Positions 3,417 to 45,053 of a DNA stretch of 64,000 nucleotides are shown here, piece by piece. Position 1 is the stretch's first letter, and every line of letters begins with the position of its first letter. The translations under genes were made by a program, and so were the position numbers. The notes under the pieces were generated by a model that saw only the letters and a program-made list of their open reading frames with translations, was not told where the DNA came from and did no database searches. Origin of the DNA: Candidatus Falkowbacteria bacterium (lineage in GTDB: Bacteria; Patescibacteriota; Patescibacteriia; CAIXNZ01); NCBI GenBank assembly GCA_963774955.1, contig CAVZGV010000003.1:771-64770 (forward strand), read 5' to 3'.

Positions 3417-3572
3417 TTTTAGGGGGCCTTGCTTCGGATTGATTAAATAATTTTACGAACTAAACAAAAAGCCAAGATAAAAGTTTGATTTAATCCCGTA
3501 TGCCAAAAGTTAAGAAAGATCAAAAAAATGAAAAAAGTTAAAGGTGAAATTGTTAAGCAGATGAAAGCTGAA

Positions 3573-8439: not shown

Positions 8440-11028
8440 ATGCTTAAAAATTTTCTCTTGGCGCCAGTAAAAAGCCGGGAGCAAAAAAATCATAAATTTG
8501 ACAATAAGACTGCCAAAGCATTATTGATAGTTGTTTTGTTTACGGCAGTTTTTTTGTTTGTGGCTCCGGCTTTAGCCCAAACTCAGGATATTACAGGTCT
8601 AAGCTATGCTCAATACACCGGGCTGGGTACTCAGGATATCCGGATTACAATTGCTAATTTAATCAGGATATTTTTTGGACTTTTAGGTTTGGTCGCCGTT
8701 GTGATTATACTTTACGGCGGTTTTTTATACATGACTTCGCAGGGAAATCCTGAGGTAATTCAAAAGGCGAAAAAAGTACTTATCGGCGCTTTTATCGGCC
8801 TGCTTATCTGTTTATTGGCTTTTGCTATTGTTCAATTTATAATAACCGCTATTTTAGGCGGAGGCGGCGGCGGAGAAGGTGGAGTCGGCGGTGGCTGGGG
8901 CGGTGGCGGCGGCGCTTTAGGTTCAGGCATTATAGAAAGCCATTATCCGGCACGCGATGCAGTCAATATTCCGCGCAATACAAAAATTGCCGTTACTTTT
9001 AAAGAGGCAATGTGTCTGACTAGTATAGTCAATGCCGAGACTGGTAATAAGATTAACACAGATAATATAAGAATATATCCGACGCCGGAAGGCAACAACG
9101 AGCCTGTTTATGTCCAGGATGTTAACGCTTCTTATACTGATGACTTAAAGACTTTTGTTTTCAGGCCTGTTAATTATCTGGGCAGTTCAGGTGCGCCTAT
9201 GCGTTATACTGTGGAATTGACTGAAGATATTACCAAATTTGGCTGTAGTAATCCGGCTTTTGGAGTCTTCAGGAATTATGCCTGGAACTTTACTGTTTCT
9301 ACGGAAATAGACAATACGCCACCGCAGATTAAGTCGGTCATTCCGTATCCGGCTGAAGAAGTTGATCGTAATAATATTGTGCAGATTAATTTTACCGAAC
9401 CGATAGACCCGATGACTTTACGAGGGGTAGTGCAACTGGACGGAGGTAATAATGTGACGGTGGGCAGTTTGCAGACCGGTACATATAATTACATAAATGT
9501 TTGTGCCGCGGCAGATTGTTCTGCGAGCAATAAATTTATTGCCGGTGAATTCAGATATTCAAATCAGTATCAGACTGTAGAATTTATCACTAATGATCTT
9601 TGCGGTAAAAACAGCTGTGGCGGTGATGTTTATTGTCTGCCGGGTTTGGCTGATATATCTGTTTTGGTCAAAGCCGCCAGTTTAATCCAGGCTGAAGAAA
9701 ATACTGCGCAATTTCCGTATAACGGTCTGGTTGATATGGCTGATAATTCTTTGGATGGTAATTTAGATAATAAATCTGCGGGGCCAAGCGCTACGCCTTA
9801 TAGCCTCAACGATAATTTGGTGGGCGGCGAATATGTAACTGCCGCCGGTGAGGGTGATAATGCTATCTGGGATTTTAGTACGACCGATAAAATTGATTTG
9901 ATACCGCCTCAGATCAGCGTGACTACTCCTTCGGCCAATACAAAAGATGTTGACCCTGACGATATTTATACAATTGATTTTGATAAGGTCATGATGTCCA
10001 GCACTTTGAAACCAAACGGGAATTATAACGGACAAACCACAGAGACTATTTATATAAATAATTTATTGGATGGATTGCAGGGTTACTATCGTTTTACGAC
10101 TAGTGCTATAGACGATTCTGGTGCTAGCCATGATGGTACCCTTATGGGTACGGCTTCCATTGTAAATGGAGAATTAAACGTTACAGGCAGTAGTAATAGC
10201 TCTGTTACTACCAGCTTTAAAATAGATCAAACATCCGGTAAGACTGCTACTTTTTGCGCTTGGGCAAATCCCAGAGGAGCGACGACTTGGCAGGGTAATG
10301 ATTTAATTTCTACAGATAATGCCGGTTATGATTGGGCAATTGATATTATACCGTCAGGATATTGGCGGGTGGCAACCGGTAAAAATTATTGGACTGCTAA
10401 TAATCAATTTCCAGCTAAATTGAACCAGTGGCAGTATGTTTGCGCTGTATTTACGACTGACAATGTTTATATATATGTAGATGGCATCGCCGCCAGTTAT
10501 GGTCAGGCGCCCGGGTATGATAGTAGTGTTAATTTTTTTACTATTGGCGCAAATCCTTCATTTCCCCCTGAAGTTTTTGACGGTAAAATTGACGCTGTTG
10601 TTGTTTATAACCGGGCTTTGGGTCCTGAAGAAATAACTGCTTTATATAATTTGGGTAAAGACGGAGATGTCTTGAGTTATCAGGGGCAACCAGTCACTCA
10701 GGTTCAGGAAGGTGAAAATTATATTACGTTAATTCAGTCGGCAGTCCCTGCCGGTCAGGAATCAGGCTATTGGATAGAAAAGGAGGAAATTACTGTGGCT
10801 AGCATACTGAGAACCAGAGCCTTAATGAAAACAACGGGTTTAGGTGAAAATCTCAGATATGGCCTGAAAATAAGTTCTAATGTTTTAGATATTAAACAAA
10901 ATTGTTATTTGCCGTGTTCCGGCCCTGGCTGTGTCAGGCGAGAAGTGCCTGGTGGTAAGCCGGGTCAATATGTGCAGGGGACACCTTGGCAGGGTACTTA
11001 CCCGACCTGCAATATCCCGCCGCAGTAA
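8440..11028 (+). CDS. Pilin-module adhesin paralog A2 (862 aa). Same N-terminal 510 aa as A1, but it carries an inserted LamG/ConA-like lectin domain and lacks the A1 C-terminal extension.
   Basis: Intact ORF. The first ~1.55 kb and 40 nt of upstream sequence are nearly identical to A1. A LamG_3-like block lies at ~10060-10665 (HDGTLMGTASIVNGEL...WQYVCAVFTTDNVYIYVDG...FDGKIDAVVVYNRALGPEEITALYN). Confidence 0.8.
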   Translation: MLKNFLLAPVKSREQKNHKFDNKTAKALLIVVLFTAVFLFVAPALAQTQDITGLSYAQYTGLGTQDIRITIANLIRIFFGLLGLVAVVIILYGGFLYMTSQGNPEVIQKAKKVLIGAFIGLLICLLAFAIVQFIITAILGGGGGGEGGVGGGWGGGGGALGSGIIESHYPARDAVNIPRNTKIAVTFKEAMCLTSIVNAETGNKINTDNIRIYPTPEGNNEPVYVQDVNASYTDDLKTFVFRPVNYLGSSGAPMRYTVELTEDITKFGCSNPAFGVFRNYAWNFTVSTEIDNTPPQIKSVIPYPAEEVDRNNIVQINFTEPIDPMTLRGVVQLDGGNNVTVGSLQTGTYNYINVCAAADCSASNKFIAGEFRYSNQYQTVEFITNDLCGKNSCGGDVYCLPGLADISVLVKAASLIQAEENTAQFPYNGLVDMADNSLDGNLDNKSAGPSATPYSLNDNLVGGEYVTAAGEGDNAIWDFSTTDKIDLIPPQISVTTPSANTKDVDPDDIYTIDFDKVMMSSTLKPNGNYNGQTTETIYINNLLDGLQGYYRFTTSAIDDSGASHDGTLMGTASIVNGELNVTGSSNSSVTTSFKIDQTSGKTATFCAWANPRGATTWQGNDLISTDNAGYDWAIDIIPSGYWRVATGKNYWTANNQFPAKLNQWQYVCAVFTTDNVYIYVDGIAASYGQAPGYDSSVNFFTIGANPSFPPEVFDGKIDAVVVYNRALGPEEITALYNLGKDGDVLSYQGQPVTQVQEGENYITLIQSAVPAGQESGYWIEKEEITVASILRTRALMKTTGLGENLRYGLKISSNVLDIKQNCYLPCSGPGCVRREVPGGKPGQYVQGTPWQGTYPTCNIPPQ
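10060..10665 (+). other. LamG / concanavalin-A-like lectin domain cassette, present in A2 and absent from A1.
   Basis: Motif pattern typical of the LamG_3 family, ending in the ...iDeV.iYNrALs.eEI..lY box. Confidence 0.6.
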
Positions 11029-11052: not shown

Positions 11053-14000
11053 ATGAGGAGGTTCAATATAAAAAATTTGTTTCTTTTAGGCCTGATTTGT
11101 TTGGGTTTATTTGTGGTTGTTAATTTCGTTAGTGCTCAGGGTTCGACCATTGATCCTGGACTTAATTATGTCGGCCCTAATATTGGCATGGGTACTCAGG
11201 ATATTAGAATTACTATTGCCAATATCATCAGAATACTTTTAGGTATTTTGGGGCTGGTTGCGGTGATAATCATTATTTACGGCGGAGTTTTGTATATGAC
11301 AGCGGCCGGTGAGGTAGAAAAAATAAAAAAGTCCAAGCAATTGATAATCGGCGCGGTTATTGGCTTAATTATTGTTTTATCAGCTTTTACCATCGCCAGT
11401 TTTATAATCAGCAGTATTCAGAACGCAACCGGACCCGGAGGAGGGCCAGGAGAAGGGCCAGGGCCAGGACCAGGACCGGGACCAGGGCCAGGACCGTTAA
11501 CTGGTTTTTGTCAGGATCCGGATTTGACTTCAGATGCCCCTTATATTTGCAGCTTATCGCCGAAACAGGCGAAAAAAGGTGATTACGTTACTATATTGGG
11601 CGGTAAATTTTTAGATTATGATAATGCCAATAGTAAAGTAGTTTTTGTAAAAGAAGGTGATACAACAGAAACAGAATATCCGGCCACTATTGTTTTATGC
11701 GCCAGTAATCCATCCTGGAAAGACTATGAAATTATAATTGAAGTGCCTAATGATTTGCCCGCAGGACCCGGCTTTAATATTTATGTAAAAAATGCCAAGG
11801 GGACCAGTAAAGATAAGCTTGTCGGCGCTTTAGATCCAAGCCATAAATTTACTTTGCTTGACGGTCAGCCTGGCCCGGGTATTGCTTGTTTAGAGCCTGA
11901 TGCCGCCAATAAGAATTTATCAATAAAAGTTTACGGTAAGCGCTTTGGAGCAGAGCAGGGTACCAGTAAATTCACCTTTACTGAAAATGCCTTAGCCGAA
12001 ACAATCGTCGGCTGGAGTGATACTGAATTAACCAGCGTTAGTGTGCCGGCAACTGCAATTAGCGGCAATGTTTTTGTCACCGTCTCAGATCAAAATAGTA
12101 ATGGTGTGTTTTTTAGATACACCTGTAATGTCAGTGATGATTGCGTCTCCACCTGTTGTACTGAAACGTATTTCGGAAAAAGCTGCGCAGCTGCTAATTA
12201 TTGTCTGCCTGGTCCTGGGGAAAGCTGTAACGGAGATACTACAGGCGGAACTTGTCAGCCGACCGAATGTCGGCCAGACTCTGTCTGTGATACAACGACT
12301 TGTGATTGTCGCTATCCACAGTCAGGTGATCCTTGCGATGCAGACCTCAACACAGCAGCCTGTCAGCCTGACGCCGCTAAATGCGGTTCAGGTTTATACT
12401 GTGCGCAAGCGAGCTGTACTTGTGCGGAAATGCCGCAAATAACCAAAGTTGAACCCAATGACGGCGCTCCTGGTAATTTTGTGACTATTTGGGGCAAGGG
12501 TTTTGAAAATAATATGGTCAAACCTGAGGATATAGTTTTTAAATCTGATTTTGATTCCGAGGCCGGCAAAGTAGGCTGGAGCTTTGATACCGGAGTATCC
12601 GGGGAGGGTGAAATCCGTACGGATGGTAAGTCTTATTCAGGTTCATCTAATATTTATCTGCGCATGCCCCAGACTGCCGAGGCTAATGATCTCTTATCAG
12701 CTTATTTGGAAGTAGCTGAAGCTTTGAATCCGGATTTGCGGCTCAATGAGGAAGATGTTCTTGTTTTTCAGTTTAAGTACAAAGGAACAGTGTCTCAAGG
12801 TTCAAGTTTTAGCCTTGGTTATATAGATAATAACAATCAAATTCATACTTGGGCTTATATGTCAGTAGGGACTTTTGAAGATTGGGATACTTATAATTAC
12901 GTAATTTATTCTATCCCTATTAATGCGGAAAAAATATTTATAACATTAAGGAGTACAGGAACTCAAGCAGAAGATAGTGAAATGTATATTGATGATGTTC
13001 AGGCATTTAGATTGCCTGAATACGGCGAAGTTAGGTTTTGCGGCCAGGGTGGCTGTGGCAATTCTGATGATAGAATTGCCCGTATGCCTATATTTGTGGC
13101 ACCTTTTTGTTCAGCTGACGGAATTTGGACTGACAATCAGATAATTGTTGAGGTCCCCCTCGGCGCTGGCTCCGGTCCACTTCAGGTGACAACAGTTAGC
13201 GGACTCCAGGATGCAACCAATGATGAAAATGGTGAGCAACTTTCAGATTTTGAGATTAATACTATTAAGAGGCCGGCTATGTGCAGACTATTTCCTGCTC
13301 AAGGTGTCTATGAACAAAGAGTTGTAATCGGAGGTATAAATTTCGGGACAGCTCTAGGTGAAGTTTTAATCGGCGGTACAAGTTTTAATACTATGTTGAG
13401 ATCTACAGTCCCGCCTTCGCGTTGGCCTAATTATATTTGGTATGACCAGATTATTGCTCAGTTAGCGGTACCGTTATTAAGCGCAGGTACTTACCCTGTG
13501 CAAGTGAAAGTTGGTGATGAATTCAGTAATCCCATGAATTTTAAAGTTTTACCGAACGTAGGCGCCCCGCATATTGACGCGATTGACCCGGTTCAAGGTC
13601 AACCAGGTCAGTATATTACTATCTTGGGCAGTAATTTCGGTAATCAACCCGGTTCAGTTAAATTTAATAATAATGAGCCATTGAAGGATAACTGGACATC
13701 TGGTGATATTTCTTTTCCGGCTCAGTGTCAAAGCAATTATTGGCATGATACATATATCGTGGTAAAGGTTCCGTCCGGACTGTCTACCGGCTTGATTGAT
13801 GTCGTGGTTAAGGCCGGTGAAGTATTTTCCAATACCACAAAATTCACGATTTGTGCTGCCGGTTCAGGCACTTGTCCATTGACCCCGGGAATTTGTGCTA
13901 TAAATCCCAAACAGGGGCCGGTGGGTTTAAGCGGAGTTACTGTTTATGGTGAAAACTTTGGTGATTATTTAAATACTAAAAGTCAAATCGTTTTTAATGA

Positions 14001-17000
14001 AGTTCCTGTCAGCGATGTTATTGGCTACTGGACTAATACCATGATTGGTCTGGGTTCGAATTTAACAGCAGCAGCTAATCCGCCGATCGTTGTGCCGGAG
14101 ACTACCAGCGGTCCGGTGCAGGTAACTGATAAAAACGGTATCCTTAGTAATACTATTAAATTTGAAGTTTCTGACTGCCGTATTGATGCGACAGTTTGTG
14201 CTGAAGGAACTAAATGTTGCGGTACTGGATCTTGTCTGGCTGAATGTCCGGTGGCAACTGTTGCCTCTTGTTCATATAATTGGAGCTTTACCACGGGAAC
14301 CAGGACACCTTATTTCGGACCTCCTTATGTGGTTGAAGATTCCGGTTGTACCAATAATACCCAAAGTCCGTCGCCCTGGATTTCTTCGGAAAATAATTGT
14401 GTTGATGCTTTGATTTCCGCCAGATTCAGACAGCCTGCGCAAAACGGAGATGTAGATGCCAATATTTTAACCTCCACCTTAATCCCCGATAATATTAAGG
14501 TTGTACCCTGCGGTAGCGCCGATGTTTTTGATGATGCAAATTGTGAGACAGCGGGCATCGCTGGTCGCGATATTAATCCGATTGAAGTGGAAAACCCCCA
14601 TGTCTTAGTGACTGGCGGTCCTACGGTAACCAATAAATTTACTTTTTATCCCAAGTCTTCCTTACTGCCAAATACTTGGTACAAGGTGGTTTTAAAAAGT
14701 AATCCCAGCACTAACCTTGGTATTAAAACAAATAATGATGTCTATCTGGACGGTGATAAAGACAGCCTGGACGGGGGAGATTACAGCTGGTATTTCAAAA
14801 TCAGAAATTCGGCGGATGAATGTCCGATTGATAAAGTTTTGGTTTCCCCTCCAACTGCCAAGCTTACTTTAATTACTCAAACGCAGGAATATAGCTCGTA
14901 TCCTATTGCCATGAATTGCAATATTTTAAATCCGGCTAATTATACCTGGAATTGGTGGAAGAAATATAGTGATGGCCATGAAGAAAATGCCGCTGACACT
15001 GATGGCGGTTATGGCGTGGCCACGCTGGCGCCAAAAACTCCGCCGCCTCAATTTATTGGCAGCTATAGCTATAAACAGCTGGCCACACCCAAAAAACAAG
15101 GCTTGGTCTATGTGGCGGTTAATATTTTTCCGAGTGAGCCTGCTAAATATAAAGAAGATACCAATAATACGCTGGTGGTTGATTTTAATATTCCCAGTAT
15201 AATTGATTTTTATCCCAAAGACGGTATTAATCAGGCGGAAGTTAATTCTTATGTAACAATTGAAGGTATAAATTTTGGTCAAAGTCAGGGCGACAGTCAG
15301 GTTTTATTCGGCGAAGCGCAAGCTCAGCTGGCAGACTGTGTTGATTCTTGGACAGATAAAAAGATTAAAGTAATTGTGCCCAAGGCCGGGCCCATTCAAA
15401 GTTCAGGCTTAAAAACACTGGCGACGCCCGAGCCAGTCAGCTTTAATAATAATCTTATTTTAGGCTATAATTTTGATGAAAATGATGATGTCTTGGTCGC
15501 TGATATTACCGGCAATTATCAGGGTGAGATTGTTAACGGATCCAAAGTAGATTCACAATTTAATAAAGCTTTACAGTTTAACGGCACTGATACTTATGTT
15601 CGAATCGGAGGCAATATCCAAGCAGCTTCTGGCAGTATTGAATTTTGGTTTAAACCCGAAGCCAGCGGAGTTCTATTTTCAGCTATGGGGCAGGCAGGCA
15701 ATGATTTTACTATCAGTTATAATGCTGCTGCCACGTTGGGAGTTATTAAAAATAATCAATGGAATCATGTAGTCTATACCTGGGATCAGGCCAAAATCGA
15801 AGACAATTTGTATATAAACGGGATAAGGCTAAGCGGAATTAATAATCCGGGCCTTGATATTGCCGGCGCTTTTATCGGGGTGAATAAAATCAGTTATATG
15901 TTGGGAACCCAAGAATCCGGCGGGTTAAGAATCAATTATTTTAAAGGGCAACTTGATGATTTTGCCATTTATAATAAGGTTTTAAGTCAGCAGGAAGTTT
16001 GGACAAATTTCGGGCTGACACCGGGACAAATTGTTTTGTTAAATTTTGAAGGAACTGGGTCGGAAATTTTAGATTCATCACTTAATAATTTTGTCGGTAT
16101 GGCTGTTGACAACCAGAATGTAAGTTTCCGGACAGCTGAAGGCAAATATGGTCAGGCCATTACTTTTGATAATAATAATCGAATAAATATTATAAATAAT
16201 CCCTCTTTGTCTTTTGATAATCAGTTTACTATTGAGGGCTGGTTTAAAATTCCCACCTTAAATTCTAACACTATTTTCGAGGCGAATAATATTAAACTGG
16301 GGGTTAACTCCGGGAATCTTAGGCTGGAATTGAAGCTTGATGTCGGCAATCGCTATCTGAATTTAGGCTTAGTTACGACGGGGGCAGACAAAAATTTTGA
16401 TATTAATGCCTGGAATTATTTTGCCGGGGTCTATGACGGAGAAAAAATCAAACTTTATTTGAATAGTTCAGAAAAAGAATATGCTACGGTTGGCAAGATA
16501 TTTCAGGAAGCAGACTTTAATAAAGCATATATCGGGGGTATCGGTAGTTCTTTTCAAGGCTCCTTGGATAATTTAGCCCTATATAATCGGGCATTATCCT
16601 CGGCGGAAATTAATAGCCGTTTGGGCGCTAAAGATAAATCTTTTATTAAAGTGGTTACCAGTTTTGGCCAGGCTATAAGCGATTTTAATAATAATGGCAT
16701 CAAAGATCCGGGTGAAATTTATACTTATAGTAATAATATTTATCCTTTCTTGTGTGCCTTGCAGCCAAATTTCGGGACTGAAGGGACAACTATCAACGTC
16801 AGTGGTGATAATCTTGGTAATAATAATAAAACTATTTATCAGAACAAACAATACGGTATTGGCAGCTATATTAAGTTCAATTATCCGAGTTTGCCTGTTT
16901 TGGACAACAACAAAATAAAGACCTGGACTAATAAGGCTCTGAGTTATGTAAATCCATTTACCAACGTGGACAGTCCAGTTATCAAGGTTTTTGCCACCAT

Positions 17001-20000
17001 TGATCCTTATTCCGAACCTTATAATGATCAAGAAAATGACGGACAGTTTATCGATGGGATGGATACTGACTACGCCGATATTAAGCCAGAACCAAACGGC
17101 AATGGTGTTTATGATAAATATAATTATTCTGTTTACGGCGGAAACGGTGACCAGCCTGAATTAGCCAGTAATACCGTGGATTTTTTTCAGCCGCCAGTAA
17201 TTGTCAGCCTGTCTCCTGATAATGGTCCGGTTAATCAATGGGTTACAATTTACGGTTATAATTTCGGTATTTTTGACCCGGAGATAAGTAAAGTACAATT
17301 TTATAATAATATTACCGGGCGCGTCATCGGCTGTCCTGATCCTGTTTGGTTTGATGATCATATTATTGTGGAAGTTCCGGTAGAGGCTCAATCAGGAGCA
17401 GTCAAAGTAATTACTGCCCAGGGTTTGGTCAGTAATGAAAAACCCTTTAAGGTAAACAATAATCCGTTGGGCGCAGGATTATGCGCTTTTCAAGATTTAT
17501 TGGGTGAACCGAAATTTAACGGCCGACCGACTGACCCGATTAAAGCAATTGGGGTGCGCTTTGATGCTGTCCAGGGCCAAAATAATTTGATTTTCAATGA
17601 TAAGCAAAATGCTCCGATTGCTGACCCGGCGGATTGGGCGGATTCGGAAATTATTTCTACTGTGCCGGTCAGTGCTGAAAGCGGCTTGGTTTATGTTAAT
17701 AAAAAAGTGGAATCAGGCAGAAAGTGCGTGGGCTTTAGTATTGCCAGCTGGTGTCCGAGTAATAAGTACGATGTTTTATATACTGATGTGCCTAGTAATT
17801 CTCTGCCTCTGGAGATTCTCAATCTCTGCGAAAGCGGTTATTACGGGACCTTGGAAGCCCGAGAAAAAGCGTTCCCAATAGAAACTTTTACCCGCGCAGA
17901 TGATAATGCCCCCAAAATAGAATTTTCCGATCTTAATATGGGCGTTTTAGCTTCTGACGGCACTTATTTGTATGCGATGTATCAGAGTGTTAATCTTTGG
18001 GGATATTCATTCTTTGGTAATCCTAATGAGGATAATGTCATGACAATCTGGAAAATCGGGTCAGGTTATAATGGCACGGAATTGGGCCGAGTTTATAAAA
18101 AATATCAGGCCACCCGAAAGCTTCTTTATCCTGATGCCGGAACATATGTTGCGGAACTTTCAGCGCCAACGGGGACCAGTTCATTAATTTATACCCCGAC
18201 CGGACTTTATGTCGGTTATGAAAATCATTTTAAGACTAGGAGCTGGCTGCCGACGACTCATCCTGATTATAAAAAGAACTGGTGGGGTATTGCCAAAATA
18301 AAATTTAATGAAGCCAGCAGTACATATGACTGGGAGATGCAAGAAATTCCTCAGGGTTTGGTTCTGGATTATTATCCTACCTGGCCAATTGTGACTAATG
18401 CAAGTTCTTCCTCTGCTAGTAATCGTTTGATGTTATATTATACCGGTAGCAATATTTTAGTTATTAGTAGAGATAATAATTTACCGGGTTTTGTCATTCA
18501 GGTTTTAAACAATGATTGGCTACAACTAGGTTTAACGTCTGTTAAAAATGCCGAGGCTAATTTTTATTCTTATAATGCTATTGTAAATACGTATTGGAAT
18601 TACACTGCAACTTATCCACAAGGTGTTGCTGATGAGCAGTATTTTTATAATATTTATAGTAACAGGGTAAATATTATTGACTGGCGTACAGGAGAGTGGG
18701 TAGGCAGGTTTGGTAATTACGCCGCGTGGACAGTTGAACAGAATGGCGTTTATGACTGGAAAAATCAAAAATACTGGTTTGGCACCAATAGAAATGATAC
18801 CCCAATTACTTGGACCTCCAATCCAGCTTATTATTCGCAAATAGTGCCGTTTACCTATGATGCTAACGGCAATCTGTCTAGCAACCATAATCGTATTTAT
18901 CGCTATGAAAAATGTCAGACTCCGATAGTCGGTTTTTGCCGTTCTGATCTTGATTGCCAGCAAGGCGGCATGTGTACGAACAGTAGATGTGAAAACGGGC
19001 AATGTACTCCGGAAATTAAGTCTTTTTCGCCGCTAGAAGGAGCAGTCGGTACTTGGATGACAATCAGCGGCTGTCATTTCGGTTGTCAGCCGGGGCAAGT
19101 ATATTTCAGCGGCGGAACATCACTTGACCAAGTATCAACTGATGGTTTATTGGCGGGCTACACCTTTGATTCAACGGAAAATAACGGATTATTCAGGAGT
19201 TCTTTTACCAACCCAGACATCAGCAGTCAACTGGTTGGTAGCGCTACCATCAGCAATGGGGTCTTGAATGTTACCGGTGATGGCTACTTGGATTTAGATA
19301 ACAGACTGGCTCAGGCTCAATATTTTGGCGGTACTGAGACCGGGAAAATGACCTTGCTGATGAAAGTAAAAACCGCTAGTTTCTCGGCCGGTAATATAAT
19401 TAATTTATCCAGGTATATCAAAGGTACGAATTATTTTGCCCTGCAGCCAAGTACCGGAGATCAGACTCAGCTTCGTATTTATGTTAAGACCAAAACTGTC
19501 GATCGGTCGATCTATTCTGCGGGGAAGATCTTGCGTAATGAATGGAATAATATCGCTTTTGTTATGGAAGCAGGAATCGGCTATAAAATTTATATTAACG
19601 GAAAGCTGACGGATGATGTTCCAGCGGCTGACCTTATATTATACAGCTGGAATGGTGATACTGCACTTGGTATAGGGTATTCTAAATTTATTGGCCAGAT
19701 TGATGATTTCTTTGTTTATAACCAGGCTTTATCCGCTGAGGAAATATTAAAATTTTCCTTAGGTGCCAAAGGACTGGAGCTGGCTGATCCGGTTTGCTGG
19801 CCAAATTGGAATTGTTCTTCTACCGGAGGTTATGATGAAGTGACCGTGGAAGTGCCTAATCGTCGGACACCTACCAATTTAGCTGATGATGCGCTAACCG
19901 GGCCAGTTCAAGTGGTCACTGCGGCTGGGTTAGTGGATAGCAGCAATGATTTGCCGCTTGCTCCGACTCCGACGCCGCCGACGCCGCCGACAGCGCCAAG

Positions 20001-20286
20001 TTTTACGGTAAATACTGAACCTTTGGGTCCGCAGATCTGCAAACTCATTCCCAATTACGGCAACCGTAAAATAAACGTCAGGATTTACGGTGAAAATTTC
20101 GGGTCTGCGCCAGCGACCGGGGATCATATTACTTTTGAACCAACAGCTAGTATTATAAGAGAGCCGTTTTTGGATTATGGTTCTGATAAACTGCCGAATC
20201 GGGAAGAACCTGATTATAATGCCCAGTCAAATCCTGATCCGAGCGGTGATGATTGCCATCGGCACAGAAGGCAATCATTCATATGA
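11053..20286 (+). CDS. Giant pilin-module surface protein B (3077 aa as annotated). It has a signal peptide, a VirB2-like two-helix module, a (GP)n linker, IPT/TIG-like repeats, Cys-rich EGF-like and Myxococcus-type repeats, Big-like domains, three LamG domains, a W/Y-rich ~450-aa block and a PT linker. It probably continues into the next ORF.
   Basis: Intact 9.2-kb ORF. N-terminus MRRFNIKNLFLLGLICLGLFVVVNFVSA | QG...TQDIRITIANIIRILLGILGLVAVIIIIYGGVLYMTAAGEVEKIKKSKQLIIGAVIGLIIVLSAFTIASFII, then GPGGGPGEGPGPGPGPGPGPGP. LamG blocks at ~15450-16015, 16036-16630 and 19140-19770. Confidence 0.8.
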   Translation: MRRFNIKNLFLLGLICLGLFVVVNFVSAQGSTIDPGLNYVGPNIGMGTQDIRITIANIIRILLGILGLVAVIIIIYGGVLYMTAAGEVEKIKKSKQLIIGAVIGLIIVLSAFTIASFIISSIQNATGPGGGPGEGPGPGPGPGPGPGPLTGFCQDPDLTSDAPYICSLSPKQAKKGDYVTILGGKFLDYDNANSKVVFVKEGDTTETEYPATIVLCASNPSWKDYEIIIEVPNDLPAGPGFNIYVKNAKGTSKDKLVGALDPSHKFTLLDGQPGPGIACLEPDAANKNLSIKVYGKRFGAEQGTSKFTFTENALAETIVGWSDTELTSVSVPATAISGNVFVTVSDQNSNGVFFRYTCNVSDDCVSTCCTETYFGKSCAAANYCLPGPGESCNGDTTGGTCQPTECRPDSVCDTTTCDCRYPQSGDPCDADLNTAACQPDAAKCGSGLYCAQASCTCAEMPQITKVEPNDGAPGNFVTIWGKGFENNMVKPEDIVFKSDFDSEAGKVGWSFDTGVSGEGEIRTDGKSYSGSSNIYLRMPQTAEANDLLSAYLEVAEALNPDLRLNEEDVLVFQFKYKGTVSQGSSFSLGYIDNNNQIHTWAYMSVGTFEDWDTYNYVIYSIPINAEKIFITLRSTGTQAEDSEMYIDDVQAFRLPEYGEVRFCGQGGCGNSDDRIARMPIFVAPFCSADGIWTDNQIIVEVPLGAGSGPLQVTTVSGLQDATNDENGEQLSDFEINTIKRPAMCRLFPAQGVYEQRVVIGGINFGTALGEVLIGGTSFNTMLRSTVPPSRWPNYIWYDQIIAQLAVPLLSAGTYPVQVKVGDEFSNPMNFKVLPNVGAPHIDAIDPVQGQPGQYITILGSNFGNQPGSVKFNNNEPLKDNWTSGDISFPAQCQSNYWHDTYIVVKVPSGLSTGLIDVVVKAGEVFSNTTKFTICAAGSGTCPLTPGICAINPKQGPVGLSGVTVYGENFGDYLNTKSQIVFNEVPVSDVIGYWTNTMIGLGSNLTAAANPPIVVPETTSGPVQVTDKNGILSNTIKFEVSDCRIDATVCAEGTKCCGTGSCLAECPVATVASCSYNWSFTTGTRTPYFGPPYVVEDSGCTNNTQSPSPWISSENNCVDALISARFRQPAQNGDVDANILTSTLIPDNIKVVPCGSADVFDDANCETAGIAGRDINPIEVENPHVLVTGGPTVTNKFTFYPKSSLLPNTWYKVVLKSNPSTNLGIKTNNDVYLDGDKDSLDGGDYSWYFKIRNSADECPIDKVLVSPPTAKLTLITQTQEYSSYPIAMNCNILNPANYTWNWWKKYSDGHEENAADTDGGYGVATLAPKTPPPQFIGSYSYKQLATPKKQGLVYVAVNIFPSEPAKYKEDTNNTLVVDFNIPSIIDFYPKDGINQAEVNSYVTIEGINFGQSQGDSQVLFGEAQAQLADCVDSWTDKKIKVIVPKAGPIQSSGLKTLATPEPVSFNNNLILGYNFDENDDVLVADITGNYQGEIVNGSKVDSQFNKALQFNGTDTYVRIGGNIQAASGSIEFWFKPEASGVLFSAMGQAGNDFTISYNAAATLGVIKNNQWNHVVYTWDQAKIEDNLYINGIRLSGINNPGLDIAGAFIGVNKISYMLGTQESGGLRINYFKGQLDDFAIYNKVLSQQEVWTNFGLTPGQIVLLNFEGTGSEILDSSLNNFVGMAVDNQNVSFRTAEGKYGQAITFDNNNRINIINNPSLSFDNQFTIEGWFKIPTLNSNTIFEANNIKLGVNSGNLRLELKLDVGNRYLNLGLVTTGADKNFDINAWNYFAGVYDGEKIKLYLNSSEKEYATVGKIFQEADFNKAYIGGIGSSFQGSLDNLALYNRALSSAEINSRLGAKDKSFIKVVTSFGQAISDFNNNGIKDPGEIYTYSNNIYPFLCALQPNFGTEGTTINVSGDNLGNNNKTIYQNKQYGIGSYIKFNYPSLPVLDNNKIKTWTNKALSYVNPFTNVDSPVIKVFATIDPYSEPYNDQENDGQFIDGMDTDYADIKPEPNGNGVYDKYNYSVYGGNGDQPELASNTVDFFQPPVIVSLSPDNGPVNQWVTIYGYNFGIFDPEISKVQFYNNITGRVIGCPDPVWFDDHIIVEVPVEAQSGAVKVITAQGLVSNEKPFKVNNNPLGAGLCAFQDLLGEPKFNGRPTDPIKAIGVRFDAVQGQNNLIFNDKQNAPIADPADWADSEIISTVPVSAESGLVYVNKKVESGRKCVGFSIASWCPSNKYDVLYTDVPSNSLPLEILNLCESGYYGTLEAREKAFPIETFTRADDNAPKIEFSDLNMGVLASDGTYLYAMYQSVNLWGYSFFGNPNEDNVMTIWKIGSGYNGTELGRVYKKYQATRKLLYPDAGTYVAELSAPTGTSSLIYTPTGLYVGYENHFKTRSWLPTTHPDYKKNWWGIAKIKFNEASSTYDWEMQEIPQGLVLDYYPTWPIVTNASSSSASNRLMLYYTGSNILVISRDNNLPGFVIQVLNNDWLQLGLTSVKNAEANFYSYNAIVNTYWNYTATYPQGVADEQYFYNIYSNRVNIIDWRTGEWVGRFGNYAAWTVEQNGVYDWKNQKYWFGTNRNDTPITWTSNPAYYSQIVPFTYDANGNLSSNHNRIYRYEKCQTPIVGFCRSDLDCQQGGMCTNSRCENGQCTPEIKSFSPLEGAVGTWMTISGCHFGCQPGQVYFSGGTSLDQVSTDGLLAGYTFDSTENNGLFRSSFTNPDISSQLVGSATISNGVLNVTGDGYLDLDNRLAQAQYFGGTETGKMTLLMKVKTASFSAGNIINLSRYIKGTNYFALQPSTGDQTQLRIYVKTKTVDRSIYSAGKILRNEWNNIAFVMEAGIGYKIYINGKLTDDVPAADLILYSWNGDTALGIGYSKFIGQIDDFFVYNQALSAEEILKFSLGAKGLELADPVCWPNWNCSSTGGYDEVTVEVPNRRTPTNLADDALTGPVQVVTAAGLVDSSNDLPLAPTPTPPTPPTAPSFTVNTEPLGPQICKLIPNYGNRKINVRIYGENFGSAPATGDHITFEPTASIIREPFLDYGSDKLPNREEPDYNAQSNPDPSGDDCHRHRRQSFI
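11125..11500 (+). other. Pilin-like module plus Pro/Gly linker of protein B.
   Basis: About 65% aa identity to the A1/A2 module. The (ggacca/gggcca) repeat at 11431-11496 encodes (GP)n. Confidence 0.55.
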
Positions 20287-23200
20287 TATTGGTGAGCCGT
20301 TTATTGATTTTGCCAATCCCGGAAATTACGATTCGAATTTAGCTGGGGCAAATTTTATTTCTCAAATTATTAAGTTTGTGACCAAAACAGACTGGGGCAG
20401 TTGTCCTGAAACCGGCTGGGATGATAAGAATATTTGTTTTAGCGTGCCAGATAATGCCGCGGGTTTTGGTACCGGATCTGAAACAGCTTTAAATAATGTT
20501 TCAGTGACTAAGGGTGATCAGCAAAGCGGCACCAAGCAGTTTGAAGTGACTTTTGGATCTTGCGGCAATCAGAAAATTGAGCGCGATAAAGGTGAAATGT
20601 GTGATGGTACATTAATGCCGACTATTACGCCTACAGAATTAATAAATATCTGCACGCAATTGTTTTCGCCGCTTTATCCTGATGATGAAATTTCCCAATG
20701 TTATGCTGAATGTAATATCGGCTGCAGTTTGTCATTCTGTGTCGGTTCTGATTGCAAAATCATCAAGGAGTTGTGCGGTAATGATACTATTGATGAATTT
20801 TACAGTGTCAATAAGGAGACCTTTTATCATGAACAATGCGATAATAATACTTTCCCCTCAGGTTTGACCTGCAGCCAAGCCGGTTATGCATCTGATAAAG
20901 TTTGTGTCAGTGGTGACAAGGCAGGGGAGCCTTGCTACGGCGACGATCAGTGCTCTGATAATAAGACTTGTGCCGGTGGTGATAATCAGGGTGCGGCCTG
21001 CACAACTAATACTGATTGCCCGCAAAGCACTTGTCAAAGCGATATTGCCTGCGTTCAGTCTTGTACTTTCCGGTGTGATACCTGTCAACTTTTAGTTTGC
21101 GATAAAAATGGGGATAATTGCGAACTGAGTCTGAAATTAACTTGCGGTAATGACCAGCTTGATATTAATGAAGAATGCGATGGTACCAATTTAAATGGAA
21201 AAACTTGCACTGATTTTAATAATCAGGAAGGAACATTGGCCTGCTATCCGCCCCAGGATCCTATTGGCATTAATGACTGCAGATTGAATACTGATGATTG
21301 TGAAGGCGGAACTTTGCCCGGACCGGTTTGTACGGCTGATAGTGATTGTCAGGCATGCGGAGTCGGTACCAGCAGCTGTGTCAAGGGTTTTTGTACGCCC
21401 TATATTACTAAATTTAGTCCCACAGACGGCCAGATCGGCACCTGGACAACCTTAGAAGGCTGTTATTTTGGCTGTGAACAAGGCGAAGTTTATTTTGAAG
21501 GAGATAAACTGACAGAATTACCTGCTGAAAATAAAAATGGACTCGTGGCCGGTTATTTATTTAACAATGATGGCAATGTCAATGATATTTCCGGTAATTT
21601 CCCAGGAACCTTAAATGGAGGCGCCAGCGTGCAAAACGGTTATCTATCTCTTGGCGGCGCCGATAGTGATTATGTTTCTCTTGGGTTATTAAACGCTGGT
21701 AGTTTATATGATGTTAACGGCAATAGCTCTGAAACATTTATTACCAGGATAAATTGGACCCAAAATCAAGATTTAAAAATACAACCGATTGGCACTGCTT
21801 TGGGCCTAATGCATATTATTGCCGTCATTGGCCAATCAGGTCATATAGGTGTTTATCTTGCTTCTCAGAATCAGGACGGGGGTTGGATTTATTCAGCCAA
21901 TAGAATTAATCCCGGAGAATGGGTGGAGATTGCGTTGGTGATTTCTAGTGGCAGCAATCTGAAATTTTATATTAACGGTATTTTAGATAAAGAAGTTAGT
22001 ATCTCTGGTCTGAAATTGTGGGGCCCGGCTTGGGAAACTACACTTGGTCAGCGATATCCTGGCGATCCTGATGCTTATAGGAATTTTAGCGGTCAAATTG
22101 ATCATTTATTAATTTATAACAGCGCTTTGTCAGAAGATGAAATCGCCAATATTTACAAATTGACTCATAAACAAGGCTTGAATCCGGGTGAAGCCTGCCC
22201 GGCCAATTGGATGTGCCATAAGAGTTGTTCTGATAAATATTGTGTCGGCGGTACAAATGACAATAAGCCATGTGCTAATAATGCTGCCTGTCCGGGTGGC
22301 GATTGCCAGTCAAATACCAGGGCATGTACTACGAATGATTCTTGTAAAGTTTGTTTGGGTGGTACTAATGCCGGTGGTTTATGCACCACTAATCAAGATT
22401 GTCCAGCTTCTCAGTGCGGAACAGGTACTTGCAGGCCTGATTGGATAGGAGATCTGGTCACGATGGAAGTGCCGAATGAAAATACTGAGGTCACCACCGA
22501 TGATGCCATAACCGGTCCAATTAACTTAGTTACGAGATATAATTTACAGAATGATACTCAGCATTTACCATATCTTACAGCTCCGTATACTCCACAAACC
22601 TCTGATTTTATGATTAGTAGTAATGAGTATCCTCAAATTTGTCTGGCTGCTGATCAAATTAAAGTAGAGTCAACAAATCCGGCTGATAACGACGGTATTA
22701 CCAACGACAATTTGATTTGCCGTAATGCCAAGATTAACATTAATTTTGATAAAATAGTTGATCAAAAGAAGATTACCAAGGGTAACTTTTTAATCAGTAC
22801 CTGCGAGTCCGGAATTGTTACGCCTAAAACTGCGTTTAATGAAGGCTTGATAAATAGGGCCATAGCTTTTGTTTTCGATATTGTTCAGAAATTAATCAGC
22901 ATTAAAAAAGATGTTTCAGCTCAGGCCGGATGTACTACTATTGCTGATTACAATCTGGAGGTTTCCAATAGCGGTGCCACCAAAGTTTCCATTGTGCCTA
23001 AGGGACTTTTGGCCCCTGAACAAGTTTATGCCGTGACAATTTTAGGCGGTCTGACTGGTATTACGGGTATTGACGGCGCGATTTTGGATTATAGTGAGTC
23101 ACCTAAAAAGATAAATGTCAACGGAACTGATCTGGAAGCTTATATCTTTGAATTTAAAACTATGGGCACGACCGCTGATCCCAAAAGCGGTATTTGCAAT

Positions 23201-24487
23201 GTTGATTGGCTTGATGTCGAGGTATACCGCAAAGCACCGATTGACAACATAAAACAGGCAGAACTCCGCAATAATGATTTATTTATCTGCGCCGGGAAAA
23301 ATAATTGTCAGTTAGCCGCTGACTATGATCAAGATGCGGTTAAGGCAGGTAATCAGCATATGTATAAGGCTTTAGCCAAATATAACGGCAGTCAGGAATT
23401 GCAGGCTACTTTCCAATGGTCAAAAACTGATACTTCTGATCCGCAAGAAGCAATTAATATTTCCAATGATTATGGCTCCTGCACAGCAGGTGATACCAAT
23501 ATTGAATTTTGTACTAATGATGCTGATTGCGGTTCCGGCGGAATTTGTGATCTGACGCAGGGTGATCTGCTCACTGAAGATCAGTATAAAGTAAAAAATT
23601 ATTCCGGGGTGACTTTTGCCACGGCTGCGGCCCTTAAAGAAGGCGTGTCAAGGTTAGTTATTGAAGCTCAAGCTTTGGGCAGCACTGTTTCGGCGCAAAA
23701 AGAATTTACAGTTTACATTTTACTGTGCGAAAATCCTTGGCCGGGCATAGATGAAAAGTTCCCGATATCTTCCATTATTAATGCTTATAATTTCCAGACT
23801 TATTATTGCCGCGATGCCACCACTCCGGGCGGACCGCTTTTACCGGCAGCACGCTGGCTGGCGCCCAAAGAAGGAAAATTAAATATTTTACAAAATGTTG
23901 ATTTTGAATTCGGTAATTTGACTTACTGGGCCGATTTGACCGGCAATGCTTTTAATTCCCAGCCGGTTTTCCGTGATTTGCCAAAAGAGAGGGGACTGGC
24001 AGCTGCCGGGATTCAGGGTGCCTGGTGGATAAATACCTATGAAAGATATCGCGGTCAGTCTTGGGAAAATATAAATGTTGTTCAGGGTAATACACCGTTG
24101 GGAATATTACAGTCTGCCGCTTTTGTCATTGAAGGTGCTAAATTGGAATTTAAGATTGGCGGCACAGCTTCTTCTCCTGCTTGGCCTATAAATTTACCTG
24201 TGGTTAATTTTAATGACACGACTGATACTAACCGTGCGGCTATACAAGGCGTAACCGCTGCCGTGTTGTTTGTTCGAGATGATAATAGTTCTTCTTTTTA
24301 CAGTATTGCCTCAGAGTCTGGCAACAATTCCCAGGTGATGACGACGAAAAATTGGGTCATTGATGGCGCACATAGGGGAAAAACTGGTATAATATATATA
24401 TATGACAATAGTACAGGTGGTTATATAAGTTTTGACGACTTAAGACAGTATGATGACAACAACGTAGAAATACCAATTAGGTTTTAG
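20177..24487 (+). CDS. Giant Cys-rich surface protein C (1436 aa ORF). It is almost certainly the C-terminal continuation of protein B across a frameshift near 20255. It contains IPT-like, Myxococcus-type Cys repeats and a fourth LamG domain (~21538-22170).
   Basis: The ORF overlaps the end of B by 110 nt in the +1 frame. An IPT-like domain is split across the two ORFs (RIYGENFGSAPATGDHITFEP... in B; ...TDWGSCPETGWDDKNICFSVPDNAAGFGTG...VSVTKGDQQSGTKQFEV in C). The module pair IPT(C.FGC..G.VYF) + LamG is repeated at ~19010 and ~21400. The annotated N-terminus is not signal-like. Confidence 0.7.
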   Translation: MVLINCRIGKNLIIMPSQILIRAVMIAIGTEGNHSYDIGEPFIDFANPGNYDSNLAGANFISQIIKFVTKTDWGSCPETGWDDKNICFSVPDNAAGFGTGSETALNNVSVTKGDQQSGTKQFEVTFGSCGNQKIERDKGEMCDGTLMPTITPTELINICTQLFSPLYPDDEISQCYAECNIGCSLSFCVGSDCKIIKELCGNDTIDEFYSVNKETFYHEQCDNNTFPSGLTCSQAGYASDKVCVSGDKAGEPCYGDDQCSDNKTCAGGDNQGAACTTNTDCPQSTCQSDIACVQSCTFRCDTCQLLVCDKNGDNCELSLKLTCGNDQLDINEECDGTNLNGKTCTDFNNQEGTLACYPPQDPIGINDCRLNTDDCEGGTLPGPVCTADSDCQACGVGTSSCVKGFCTPYITKFSPTDGQIGTWTTLEGCYFGCEQGEVYFEGDKLTELPAENKNGLVAGYLFNNDGNVNDISGNFPGTLNGGASVQNGYLSLGGADSDYVSLGLLNAGSLYDVNGNSSETFITRINWTQNQDLKIQPIGTALGLMHIIAVIGQSGHIGVYLASQNQDGGWIYSANRINPGEWVEIALVISSGSNLKFYINGILDKEVSISGLKLWGPAWETTLGQRYPGDPDAYRNFSGQIDHLLIYNSALSEDEIANIYKLTHKQGLNPGEACPANWMCHKSCSDKYCVGGTNDNKPCANNAACPGGDCQSNTRACTTNDSCKVCLGGTNAGGLCTTNQDCPASQCGTGTCRPDWIGDLVTMEVPNENTEVTTDDAITGPINLVTRYNLQNDTQHLPYLTAPYTPQTSDFMISSNEYPQICLAADQIKVESTNPADNDGITNDNLICRNAKININFDKIVDQKKITKGNFLISTCESGIVTPKTAFNEGLINRAIAFVFDIVQKLISIKKDVSAQAGCTTIADYNLEVSNSGATKVSIVPKGLLAPEQVYAVTILGGLTGITGIDGAILDYSESPKKINVNGTDLEAYIFEFKTMGTTADPKSGICNVDWLDVEVYRKAPIDNIKQAELRNNDLFICAGKNNCQLAADYDQDAVKAGNQHMYKALAKYNGSQELQATFQWSKTDTSDPQEAINISNDYGSCTAGDTNIEFCTNDADCGSGGICDLTQGDLLTEDQYKVKNYSGVTFATAAALKEGVSRLVIEAQALGSTVSAQKEFTVYILLCENPWPGIDEKFPISSIINAYNFQTYYCRDATTPGGPLLPAARWLAPKEGKLNILQNVDFEFGNLTYWADLTGNAFNSQPVFRDLPKERGLAAAGIQGAWWINTYERYRGQSWENINVVQGNTPLGILQSAAFVIEGAKLEFKIGGTASSPAWPINLPVVNFNDTTDTNRAAIQGVTAAVLFVRDDNSSSFYSIASESGNNSQVMTTKNWVIDGAHRGKTGIIYIYDNSTGGYISFDDLRQYDDNNVEIPIRF

Positions 24488-35308: not shown

Positions 35309-36573
35309 ATGTCTCAAGAAGAAATTATTGTCGGCTTAGATGTGGGTTCTACTTCGATTAAGGTCGTGGTGGCAACGCGAATGTCCAAAGAAGCCAATCA
35401 AAAAATACATATTATTGGAGCGGTTGCTCAGGAGTCAGAGGGTATTAATCGCGGGGTTATTACCAGTATTGAAGACGCTGCTTCGAGTATTAGCAAGGCT
35501 TTGGATAAAGCTGAAAAATTAACGGGTATTGCCTATTGAACAAGCTTGGGTTAGTATTTCCGGCGGTACATATTATTTCGCAAATCAGCCAGGGTGTCGT
35601 GGCGGTTTCAAAAACGGACGGTGAAATCAGGGAAGAAGATTATGAAAGAGCTTTAGAAGCGGCTAAGGCAGTAACCACGCCGCCTAATTATGAGATTCTG
35701 CATGTAATACCTCGCAGTTTTACTGTTGACGGTCAAAGCAGTATTAAAGATCCGATTGGCATGACCGGAGTTCGTTTGGAAGTAGAAACCTATATTATTA
35801 GGGTTTAAGTTCGCAGATAAAAAATTTAACCAAATGCGTTTATCAGACAGGCTTGGATATTGAAGATTTGATTTTAGGGTATATTGGCGACTAGCGAAGC
35901 GGTTTTGACCAGTCGACAGAAAGAATTGGGTGTGGCCGTAGTTAATATTGGCGGTGCCACTACCAGTTTGGCTGTTTTTGAACAGGGTGATTTGCTGACA
36001 ACTGCGATTTTACCCATTGGGTTCAGAACATATTACTTCTGATATTGCCATTGGTTTAAGGACATCTATTGAAGCGGCTGAAGCGATTAAATTAAAATAT
36101 GGAGCGGCAACTTCCAAAGGAATTGATAAAAAAGAGCGAATTTGATTTGAGTGAATTTGATGAAAATGAAGAAGGTTTAATCAGCAGAAAATATTTGGCT
36201 GAAATTATTGAAGCCCGAGTTGAAGAAATTTTGGACAAAGTTGATATTGAACTGAAAAAAATTGACCGTAGCGGTTCTTTGCCCGCTGGTATTATTCTGA
36301 CCGGTGGAGGGGCCAAATTACCGAAAATTATTGAGGTTTGCAAAAGGAACCTTACGTTTACCGGCAGCCTTGGGTTATCCTTATGACATTATTAGTGTTA
36401 TTGATAAGGTTAATGATTTATCTTTTACCACTGCTGTCGGTTTAGTAAAATGGGCTGGCCATATGATGAAGCAGCGTAAAGGGATTTCACGTTTTAAAAG
36501 TGTGACCGGGGTAACCGATAAAATGAAAAAATGGTTTAAATCTTTGTGCCTTAAAATGGTGCTGAACAAATAA
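35309..36573 (+). pseudogene. ftsA: Cell-division protein FtsA, split into at least 5 frame segments.
   Basis: IIVGLDVGSTSIKVVVA...; ISGGTYYFANQPG / VVAVSKTDGEIREEDYERALEAAKAV...EILHVIPRSFTVDGQSSIKDPIGMTGVRLEVE; ILTGGGAKLPKIIEV...; LRLPAALGYPYDIISVIDKVNDLSFTTAVGLVKWAG. All FtsA-typical, but in different frames. Confidence 0.7.
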
Positions 36574-36657
36574 TGTGTCCAATATTGTGCAAAAAGTAGT
36601 TTACTAATAGCTTGAAAGTTGATATTATAATAGTAATTAATATAAGCGTTAAAATAT

Positions 36658-37763: not shown

Positions 37764-37869
37764 AAATGAAAGTGAGGAGGAAGATTTGGATATCCCGGCC
37801 TTTATCAGGAAAAAGATGATGTAAGCCTGAATCACGGATTTTTCTCACGGATAATACAGATTTTGGTTA

Positions 37870-44578: not shown

Positions 44579-44592
44579 AATTTTAGATCCTC

Positions 44593-44652
44593 GGAATCCA
44601 ATTCCCAATTGGGAATTGGATTCCACAAGAAGCCACGTGACGCGGTTTTTTT
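44593..44652 (+). terminator. 32-nt perfect palindrome (ggaatccaattcccaattgggaattggattcc) followed by a GC stem and a T7 run.
   Basis: Read directly from the sequence. Confidence 0.55.
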
Positions 44653-44668
44653 GTTTGTACTTTAAATC

Positions 44669-44697
44669 TTGACATTGTGATTTTTGTATGTTAGGAT
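44669..44697 (+). promoter_or_regulatory. Sigma70-like promoter for the pilin gene (TTGACA, 17 nt, TAGGAT).
   Basis: Perfect -35, 17-nt spacer and a TAnnnT -10. Confidence 0.45.
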
Positions 44698-44730
44698 ATA
44701 AAATCAATGTTTGAAAGGAGGAATATCAGG

Positions 44731-45039
44731 ATGAGGAGAAAAGGGAGTCCGGGGTTTACTTTGATTGAGCTGATGATCGTCGTGGCCATTATTGGCATTC
44801 TGGTGGTCGGTGTCGGCTTGATCGGAGTAGGGGTTAAAGGCAATTTCTGGTGGACCCAGAGCGGAGTTGTTACCCAACTTCAGGAAGAACAACAGGGCGT
44901 GGAAAAAATGATCGTTTCCAAATCCGAGCGCAATATCTGGCGTGATTCCAGAATCACAGTCGTCCGAAACGGTCAGCCCGTGACCTATTGCCTGGATTCG
45001 GATATCTTTTTCGACTATGATCTTCATGACTGTAACTAG
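44731..45039 (+). CDS. Type IV pilin / pseudopilin with a class III (prepilin peptidase) signal.
   Basis: MRRKGSPG | FTLIELMIVVAIIGILVVGV N-methylation motif. C-terminal Cys pair (YCLDSDIFFDYDLHDC). AGGAGG RBS 9 nt upstream of the ATG at 44731. Confidence 0.8.
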   Translation: MRRKGSPGFTLIELMIVVAIIGILVVGVGLIGVGVKGNFWWTQSGVVTQLQEEQQGVEKMIVSKSERNIWRDSRITVVRNGQPVTYCLDSDIFFDYDLHDCN

Positions 45040-45053
45040 ACTTTATTTCCTAA

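Follow-up and report, generated by a model that had tools for sequence, protein, structure and literature searches.

Organization of the locus

The window analyzed here is a stretch of 64,000 nucleotides (nt) of contig CAVZGV010000003.1 from a Candidatus Falkowbacteria bacterium (assembly GCA_963774955.1, positions 771 to 64,770 of the forward strand), with a G+C content of about 40% and genes for several very large secreted proteins. The subject of this work is a pair of open reading frames (ORFs) of this window, ORF B and ORF C, which, as described in an earlier note made from the sequence alone (hereafter the original prediction), overlap by 110 nt (20177-20286) in different frames (Table 1). 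The two ORFs are halves of one ancestral gene, interrupted in the deposited sequence by a single extra base, a T that we read, with a slight preference, as a genuine and recent mutation.

Table 1. Features of the ORF B/ORF C locus, in window coordinates. The Lac Pavin contig L001 and the homolog P0002 are introduced in the text.
Feature	Position	Strand	Remarks
Reconstructed single gene	11053..24487	+	13,435 nt including one extra base; collinear with P0002, single high-scoring segment pairs (HSPs) over the junction
ORF B	11053..20286	+	frame 1, 3077 amino acids (aa), ATG start (ORF listing)
VirB2-like pilin domain (Pfam T4SS_pilin, PF18895)	11212..11406	+	after the signal peptide; 33.4 bits against a cut-off of 26.6
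C.FGC..G.VYF motif, B side	19072..19107	+	CHFGCQPGQVYF
IPT/TIG-like beta-sandwich	19999..20581	+	194 aa when joined, long loop inserted, split by the defect
ORF C	20177..24487	+	frame 2, 1436 aa counted from the first ATG (ORF listing)
Inverted repeat, left arm	20249..20257	.	ATGATTGCC, holds the extra T
Frame defect	20254..20260	+	7 nt (TGCCATC) here, 15 nt (TTTAATGGCTCAGCA) in L001; DNA and protein alignment
Out-of-frame tail of ORF B	20254..20286	+	CHRHRRQSFI, then TGA
Inverted repeat, right arm	20270..20278	.	GGCAATCAT, in conserved G-N-H codons
C.FGC..G.VYF motif, C side	21461..21496	+	CYFGCEQGEVYF; Laminin_G_3 after it at 21713-22147
C-terminal jelly-roll	23816..24484	+	conserved; ends ...IIYIYDN..SFDDLRQY..IPIRF; no Pfam match

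Because 11053 leaves a remainder of 1 and 20177 a remainder of 2 on division by three, the passage from ORF B to ORF C requires one base to be skipped (+1). Read in frame 1 up to its stop codon, ORF B ends with ...NPDPSGDDCHRHRRQSFI* (peptide end ...SGDDCHRHRRQSFI), and 5 of the 10 final residues are arginine or histidine, two amino acids that together account for 2.6% of the joined protein. Of the 4468 windows of ten residues in that protein, not one contains as many, and the earlier remark that this tail is atypical of an acidic protein is thus borne out. Homology to the relatives stops at 20253 (...SGDD) in the frame of ORF B and starts only at 20255-20261 in the frame of ORF C. The open stretch of frame 2 starts at 20159; it is translated as ...AVMIAIGTEGNHSYDIGEPFIDFANPGNY... 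and, past an uninformative leader, ...AIGTEGNHSYDIGEPFIDFANPGNY..., the first ~26 codons of ORF C (MVLINCRIGKNLIIMPSQILIRAVMI) having no counterpart in any homolog. The frame favored by codon usage changes at ~20280.

ORF B and ORF C are halves of one gene

The nearest public relative found, contig JAPLYC010000023.1 (L001) of a Candidatus Parcubacteria metagenome-assembled genome from Lac Pavin, has frame 1 open from the contig end (position 1) to 7182. The joined protein aligns with it as one HSP in one frame, over residues 2092-4477 and with 68% identity, and at the junction the relative runs unbroken (..PDPAGDDFNGSAGTEGNH.., compared with ..PDPSGDD|AIGTEGNH.. in the window; in the alignment, ..NPDPSGDD---AIGTEGNHSYDIGEPFIDFAN in the window and ..IPDPAGDDFNGSAGTEGNHIYNAGEPFIDFAN in the relative). 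An exhaustive HMMER search of the wider family returned 361 hits, and 13 homologs, including the Lac Pavin one, span the junction as a single HSP. At least four full-length relatives, P0002 (4067 aa), P0003 (3466 aa), P0004 (4051 aa) and P0005 (3771 aa), combine the pilin-like N terminus found in ORF B with the C-terminal end found in ORF C (...IIYIYDN..SFDDLRQY..IPIRF); collinearity with these proteins extends over the whole length of the joined protein, P0004 and P0005 giving single HSPs over the junction, and the last ~600 aa are common to at least 11 relatives. No homolog was found in which the B-like and C-like parts are separate genes. Queries spanning the junction gave no match in a word-index protein search, the index of which evidently does not hold these proteins, and a scan of conserved peptides against metagenome contigs recovered no relative.

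The export signals are distributed in the same sense. ORF B and the next gene, ORF D (24498..), each start with a signal peptide; ORF C is composed of Cys-rich extracellular modules, yet inspection by eye found no signal peptide in it. Because the ortholog, the wider family, the integrity of a domain at the junction (see below) and the export signal all agree, ORF B and ORF C are read as a single gene of 4,477 codons plus a stop, with a product of ~486 kDa and pI 4.5. The gene is a member of a conserved Parcubacteria/Patescibacteria family, the surface proteins of which are very large (3.2-4.1 k aa).

The original prediction, that both ORFs represent one gene with a single +1 shift, is accordingly supported by the Lac Pavin contig, the 13 homologs and the split domain. 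Its further statement that the real product is that of a ~13.5-kb gene holds as far as the gene is concerned; the cell may nevertheless not make the full 4,477-aa product, since the extra base may be genuine. An annotation should unite ORF B and ORF C in a single 4,477-codon entry marked as frameshifted.

The locus shares its main features with frameshift-interrupted genes in general, whether young pseudogenes or the assembly frameshifts that the NCBI annotation pipeline PGAP flags as 'frameshifted': adjacent ORFs on the same strand in different frames, continuous orthologs, and a domain cut at the junction. A downstream part that lacks signals for its own translation and export would fit as well: no signal peptide is recognizable by eye in ORF C, and its leader residues have no homolog, but ATG codons are available. 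In nothing essential does it differ from them; what is unusual is the length of the gene (13.4 kb) and the position of the lesion at a perfect inverted repeat.

A domain divided between two frames

The junction falls within an IPT/TIG-like beta-sandwich, strands A-C of which come from frame 1 and the other strands from frame 2; the N-terminal half, in ORF B, reads PQICKLIPNYGNRKINVRIYGENFG, and the C-terminal half, in ORF C, reads CPETGWDDKNICFSVP...VSVTKG...FEVTF. Structure prediction of the joined 194-aa segment with AlphaFold2 (AF2), based on 13 sequences, yielded one confidently folded unit with a predicted local distance difference test score (pLDDT) of 80.6 and a predicted template modeling score (pTM) of 0.75. 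Averaged over blocks of ten, residues 11-55 (B side) and 100-185 (C side) have mean pLDDT of 84-97, and values below 50 are confined to the loop 64-92, which contains the junction. Profile comparison of the joined segment with the TIG domain of ORF B (residues 831-945, inside which residues 839-933 cover Pfam TIG positions 1-84 of 84) using hhalign gave a probability of 89.7% and E = 1.9e-6; the N-terminal and C-terminal halves of TIG fell on the B side and the C side, respectively.

When the joined segment around the junction (330 aa) was scanned against Pfam, neither TIG (PF01833) nor any other model matched at E <= 10, the TIG match probably being disrupted by the 60-85-aa insertion in the domain. 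Foldseek likewise returned nothing at E <= 0.001 for the split domain and adds weak support, its top-probability matches being NF-kB IPT domains (probability 0.8-0.96, target-normalized template modeling score (TMt) 0.5-0.6, all E > 0.09). The AF2 model and the hhalign alignment nevertheless bear out the proposed division of an IPT-like domain between the two ORFs: a single TIG-like domain with an Ig-like E-set fold is, as modeled, cut at the junction and completed by joining the frames.

One copy of the motif C.FGC..G.VYF is present on either side of the junction. Its C-side copy is followed by a Laminin_G_3 domain (ORF C residues 513-657); ORF B has Laminin_G_3 matches as well, of which the best stretch, 1708-1854, is the only one mapped. 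From the earlier description of a repeated IPT plus LamG module on both sides, the motif on both sides and the LamG domain after the C-side copy can thus be retained, whereas the LamG domain after the B-side copy may be any of the matches in ORF B. In both repeats, at 19072-19900 and 21461-22300, LamG is apparently inserted within an IPT-like domain, with the strands ..GTW.T..GC.FGC..G.VYF before it and the closing strands ..VEVPN...GP..VVT..G after it. The loop that hosts LamG in the repeated module would be the one that also holds the insertion at the junction.

Position of the frame defect

Comparison with the Lac Pavin contig confines the defect to a few nucleotides flanked by the conserved GATGAT (D-D) and GGCACAGAAGGC (G-T-E-G). 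The 7 nt found here being a multiple of three plus one, one base is in excess, and the simplest repair is to drop one of the two Ts at 20253-20254, which restores GAT GAT GCC ATC GGC and the peptide ...SGDD-AIGTEGNH.... This is the position that had been proposed from the sequence alone (the T in gatgatTgccatc, giving SGDD-AIGTEG), and the ortholog comparison confirms it. With the extra T, the allele of the window reads GATGATTGCCATC (also GGTGATGATTGCCATCGGCAC); the allele minus T would read GGTGATGATGCCATCGGC (also GGTGATGATGCCATCGGCAC), and the joined-frame peptide over the junction is ...SGDDAIGTEGNH.... The T5 run at 20167-20171 was also considered as the shift site and was rejected, because frame 1 stays homologous to the relatives until 20253.

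The defect lies within a sub-loop of ~35 aa (KLPNREEPDYNAQSNPDPSGDD|AIGTEGNH), which is present in only 5 of the 14 aligned sequences and varies in length among them. To judge from this alignment, the site is part of a region where insertions and deletions (indels) are tolerated.

Origin of the extra base

The break is an ordinary lesion or a sequence error, not a designed feature or a new mechanism. Between these two, we slightly prefer the view that the extra T is a genuine, very recent insertion produced by template switching at a quasi-palindrome, with a probability of roughly 0.5; an error of the record takes up a large share of the remaining probability, and very little is assigned to everything else.

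The preference is based on the sequence surrounding the T: a perfect inverted repeat with arms of 9 bp and a 12-nt loop, the left arm of which includes the T. Only 10 such repeats are present in the 64-kb window, and the probability that a random site falls within an arm of at least 9 bp is 0.0023; the 14 artifact indels mapped in ftsA and ftsZ (see below), by comparison, sit in repeats of at most 5 bp. Without the T, the sequence ATGATGCC...GGCAATCAT forms an 8/9 repeat in which a single A is bulged, and a template switch at this quasi-palindrome would add a T opposite the bulge, so that ATGAT-GCC ... GGCAATCAT would become the perfect 9-bp repeat. The Lac Pavin contig reads GGCAACCAT at the right arm and has no matching left arm, so that the repeat is absent there. 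Template switching at quasi-palindromes is known to perfect imperfect inverted repeats and to yield frameshifts (Klaric, Perr and Lovett 2020, PMC7202029). The locus resembles the quasi-palindrome mutations described there (the thyA hotspot of E. coli and the lacZ quasi-palindrome reporters) in that a one-base insertion in a repeat arm perfects the repeat and causes a frameshift; it differs from them in that the ancestral imperfect allele is reconstructed here and the coincidence could be due to chance.

If genuine, the lesion must be very recent, because ORF C shows no decay. Identity to the Lac Pavin contig is 69.9% for the ORF B part and 70.0% for ORF C, and no further stop or shift is found in the 4.2 kb of ORF C. 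Relative-rate tests gave 45 vs 41 and 69 vs 63 for the B part, and 107 vs 77 and 41 vs 46 for the C part; the difference of 107 vs 77 has p = 0.027 with one outgroup and is lost across the four tests, so that no robust acceleration of ORF C is seen. Given a genuine T, the strain would make an anchored protein of 3,077 aa minus the distal 1,410 aa, which include a tip resembling carbohydrate-binding modules (CBMs), and ORF C, with no signal peptide recognizable by eye, would be a remnant that has not yet decayed. The locus would then represent a clean natural case of a quasi-palindrome templated frameshift deleting a distal binding tip.

Several points weigh against a genuine insertion. The repeat was noticed post hoc, so that the P value should be discounted several-fold, and the perfecting of the repeat by the insertion is a reconstruction, the pre-mutation allele not having been seen. 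The undecayed state of ORF C is equally compatible with a sequence error. The inserted T copies its neighbor, as do several of the artifact insertions. No independent assembly or reads over 20254 were recovered, and exact look-ups of ORF B and of both versions of ORF C (starting at 20177 or at 20249) gave no match; exact look-ups of the 862-, 836- and 3233-aa genes of the window among contigs also gave none. Finally, the record is demonstrably faulty elsewhere, with at least 22 single-base indels in the four essential genes lepB, hisS, ftsA and ftsZ, which makes one more single-base error plausible.

These errors form two patches. At 35309-37824, ftsA and ftsZ are heavily fragmented by 8 and 6 single-base indels, respectively, relative to the Lac Pavin orthologs (L002), insertions and deletions being mixed and mostly located outside homopolymers. 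A Logan contig of run ERR12035938, apparently from the same strain, carries an intact ftsA of 413 aa and an intact ftsZ of 388 aa; ORF D is identical in it over 1797 aa, the neighboring genes are of identical length, and the offset between its coordinates and those of the window shifts from 22080 to 22085 across the ftsA/ftsZ region. Since both genes are intact in this independent contig, the other genes of which match exactly, these indels belong to the record and not to the organism. In the second patch, at 2825-4250, the frame switches two or more times in lepB (signal peptidase I) and six or more times in hisS. Error patches in essential genes mean that any frameshift inferred from this record needs read support.

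In the strongest competing explanation, the same single gene is intact in the organism and the full 4,477-aa protein is made, the extra base having entered the deposited sequence by mistake (long-read consensus, polishing or strain-mixture consensus); we give this explanation somewhat less than an even chance. Besides the points just listed, it is favored by the fact that the source record is a single contig of 565,549 nt, which is taken, by inference only, to suggest a long-read assembly, and by the location of the defect in a loop of variable length, where strain polymorphism could confuse the consensus. On the other side, the proven errors are confined to the two dense patches (~2825-4250 and 35529-37761); in the ~45 kb of coding sequence outside them, there is no frame break apart from the one considered here, and gene lengths are approximately those expected from L002. 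In addition, the site coincides with the perfect inverted repeat, unlike all of the 14 mapped artifacts.

A genuine templated insertion could also be one of many. The quasi-palindrome would in this case be a recurrent hotspot, at which populations switch between the full-length 4,477-aa adhesin, anchored through its VirB2-like pilin domain, and the 3,077-aa form without the CBM-like tip, a speculative scenario that we consider very unlikely. If true, it would amount to a phase-variation-like mechanism that operates through template switching instead of simple repeats, and its setting would be an uncharacterized family of giant proteins, which may be presented on pilins of type IV secretion systems (T4SS) or be anchored in the way such pilins are.

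An established fission into two separate functional genes, with ORF C translated from the ATG at 20249 or 20177, is highly improbable. In-frame ATG codons are indeed available at 20177, 20219 and 20249, and the source record annotates ORF C from the last of them as a protein of 1412 aa. Such a protein would however apparently lack a signal peptide or anchor despite its Cys-rich extracellular modules, the split would cut the beta-sandwich domain in half, and the arrangement is seen in no homolog. A promoter/terminator scan detected no terminator-like site between the ORFs, and the only promoter-like match on the + strand near the junction (20259-20287) is downstream of all three ATG codons, the number of promoter-like matches at the junction not exceeding the expectation from shuffled sequence.

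Production of both the 3,077-aa and the 4,477-aa proteins from one mRNA, by a programmed +1 ribosomal frameshift or by transcriptional slippage, has next to no chance of being correct: the +1 geometry, a Shine-Dalgarno-like GGUGAU 3 nt upstream of 20254 and a hairpin that can form across the site would fit it, but tRNA-Asp, tRNA-Cys and tRNA-His cannot re-pair in +1 within T-GCC-ATC / UGC-CAU-C, the codons at 20251-20262 (GAU UGC CAU CGG) include no stop or obviously hungry codon and the frame-1 stop follows 10 codons on, a homopolymer that would allow slippage is absent, the hairpin is unremarkable in its fold z-score (-1.72), and all 13 of the 13 homologs are in frame here. With no slippery site and no conservation of the shift, we regard it as almost certainly not programmed. 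The programmed +1 frameshift of prfB (release factor 2) is similar in its geometry and in having a Shine-Dalgarno-like element a few bases upstream; it possesses, however, a slippery codon of the CUU-U type and a stop in the A site, neither of which is present in the window, and the shift here lacks conservation among homologs.

Architecture and family of the protein

The N-terminal VirB2-like domain of ORF B, presumed to serve as a membrane anchor or as a module for incorporation into a pilus, is not confined to this gene. Three tandem genes (5004..7514, 8440..11028 and ORF B from 11053) encode a signal peptide, then a VirB2-like PF18895 domain and then a large ectodomain, the domain in the gene at 8440 scoring 38.5 bits against the cut-off of 26.6. 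The genes at 5004-7514 and 8440-11028 are 97% identical over the first 530 aa and have 51 identical upstream bases, which indicates a recent tandem duplication of these two genes. The same N-terminal domain was found in 35 of 150 representative homologs (842-4067 aa; among P0002-P0140), which points to a broad, apparently undescribed Patescibacteria family of giant surface proteins anchored by a pilin domain.

The ectodomain is acidic and is composed of tandem IPT/TIG, LamG, Big_5 and Cys-rich modules, with a CBM-like jelly-roll predicted at the distal end. The model of this C-terminal domain has an AF2 pLDDT of 66, and its Foldseek matches include LAST-MAM, a hyaluronan-binding module, CBM16 and CBM61 (E 4e-4 to 2e-3). 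The VirB2-like N terminus would fix the protein to the membrane or within a pilus-like structure, and the domain content suggests an adhesin or glycan-binding function in attachment to host or environmental glycans.

In a survey of T4SS in Patescibacteria, arrays of small VirB2 paralogs were described and no adhesins were found (PMC12102498). The proteins of the window share with these pilins an N-terminal PF18895 domain scoring above the cut-off and the organization in an array, here of three genes (5004, 8440, 11053). In contrast to VirB2 of that survey, which is a small protein, the pilin-like domain is fused here to giant ectodomains (0.8-4.4 k aa), an arrangement that the survey does not discuss. 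No virB4 or other T4SS gene was noticed among the identified genes of the window or of L002, although no dedicated search was made.

At 4,477 aa, the joined protein would exceed all of the 35 representative homologs that share its N-terminal domain. The original placement of the gene among the largest of bacteria was nevertheless overstated: proteins of 30,000-85,804 aa have been reported in Omnitrophota and other phyla, 85,804 aa being the size that predicted bacterial proteins reach (bioRxiv 10.1101/2023.11.21.568195). The Omnitrophota giants resemble the protein described here as very long, secreted or anchored multi-domain proteins with attachment and carbohydrate-binding modules, encoded in a small genome. 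The protein of the window differs from them in its size (~4.5 k aa, not >30 k aa), in the phylum, in its VirB2-like N terminus and in that no SecA DEAD domain was detected. Neither the pilin-domain giants nor a templated frameshift alters current understanding.

Other features of the window

In the 64-kb window, no tRNA genes and no Rfam families at gathering score were found. Another giant gene, at 50525-60226, encodes a protein of 3233 aa and is followed at 60342-63872 by a Cys-rich ORF of at least 1176 aa with a TTG start; very large secreted proteins are thus unusually abundant in the window. The gap between the genes for an HtrA-like protease and a release factor (44578-45136) measures 558 nt, compared with 94 nt in the Lac Pavin relative, and is thus ~460 nt wider; it contains an ORF of 110 aa (44707..45039).

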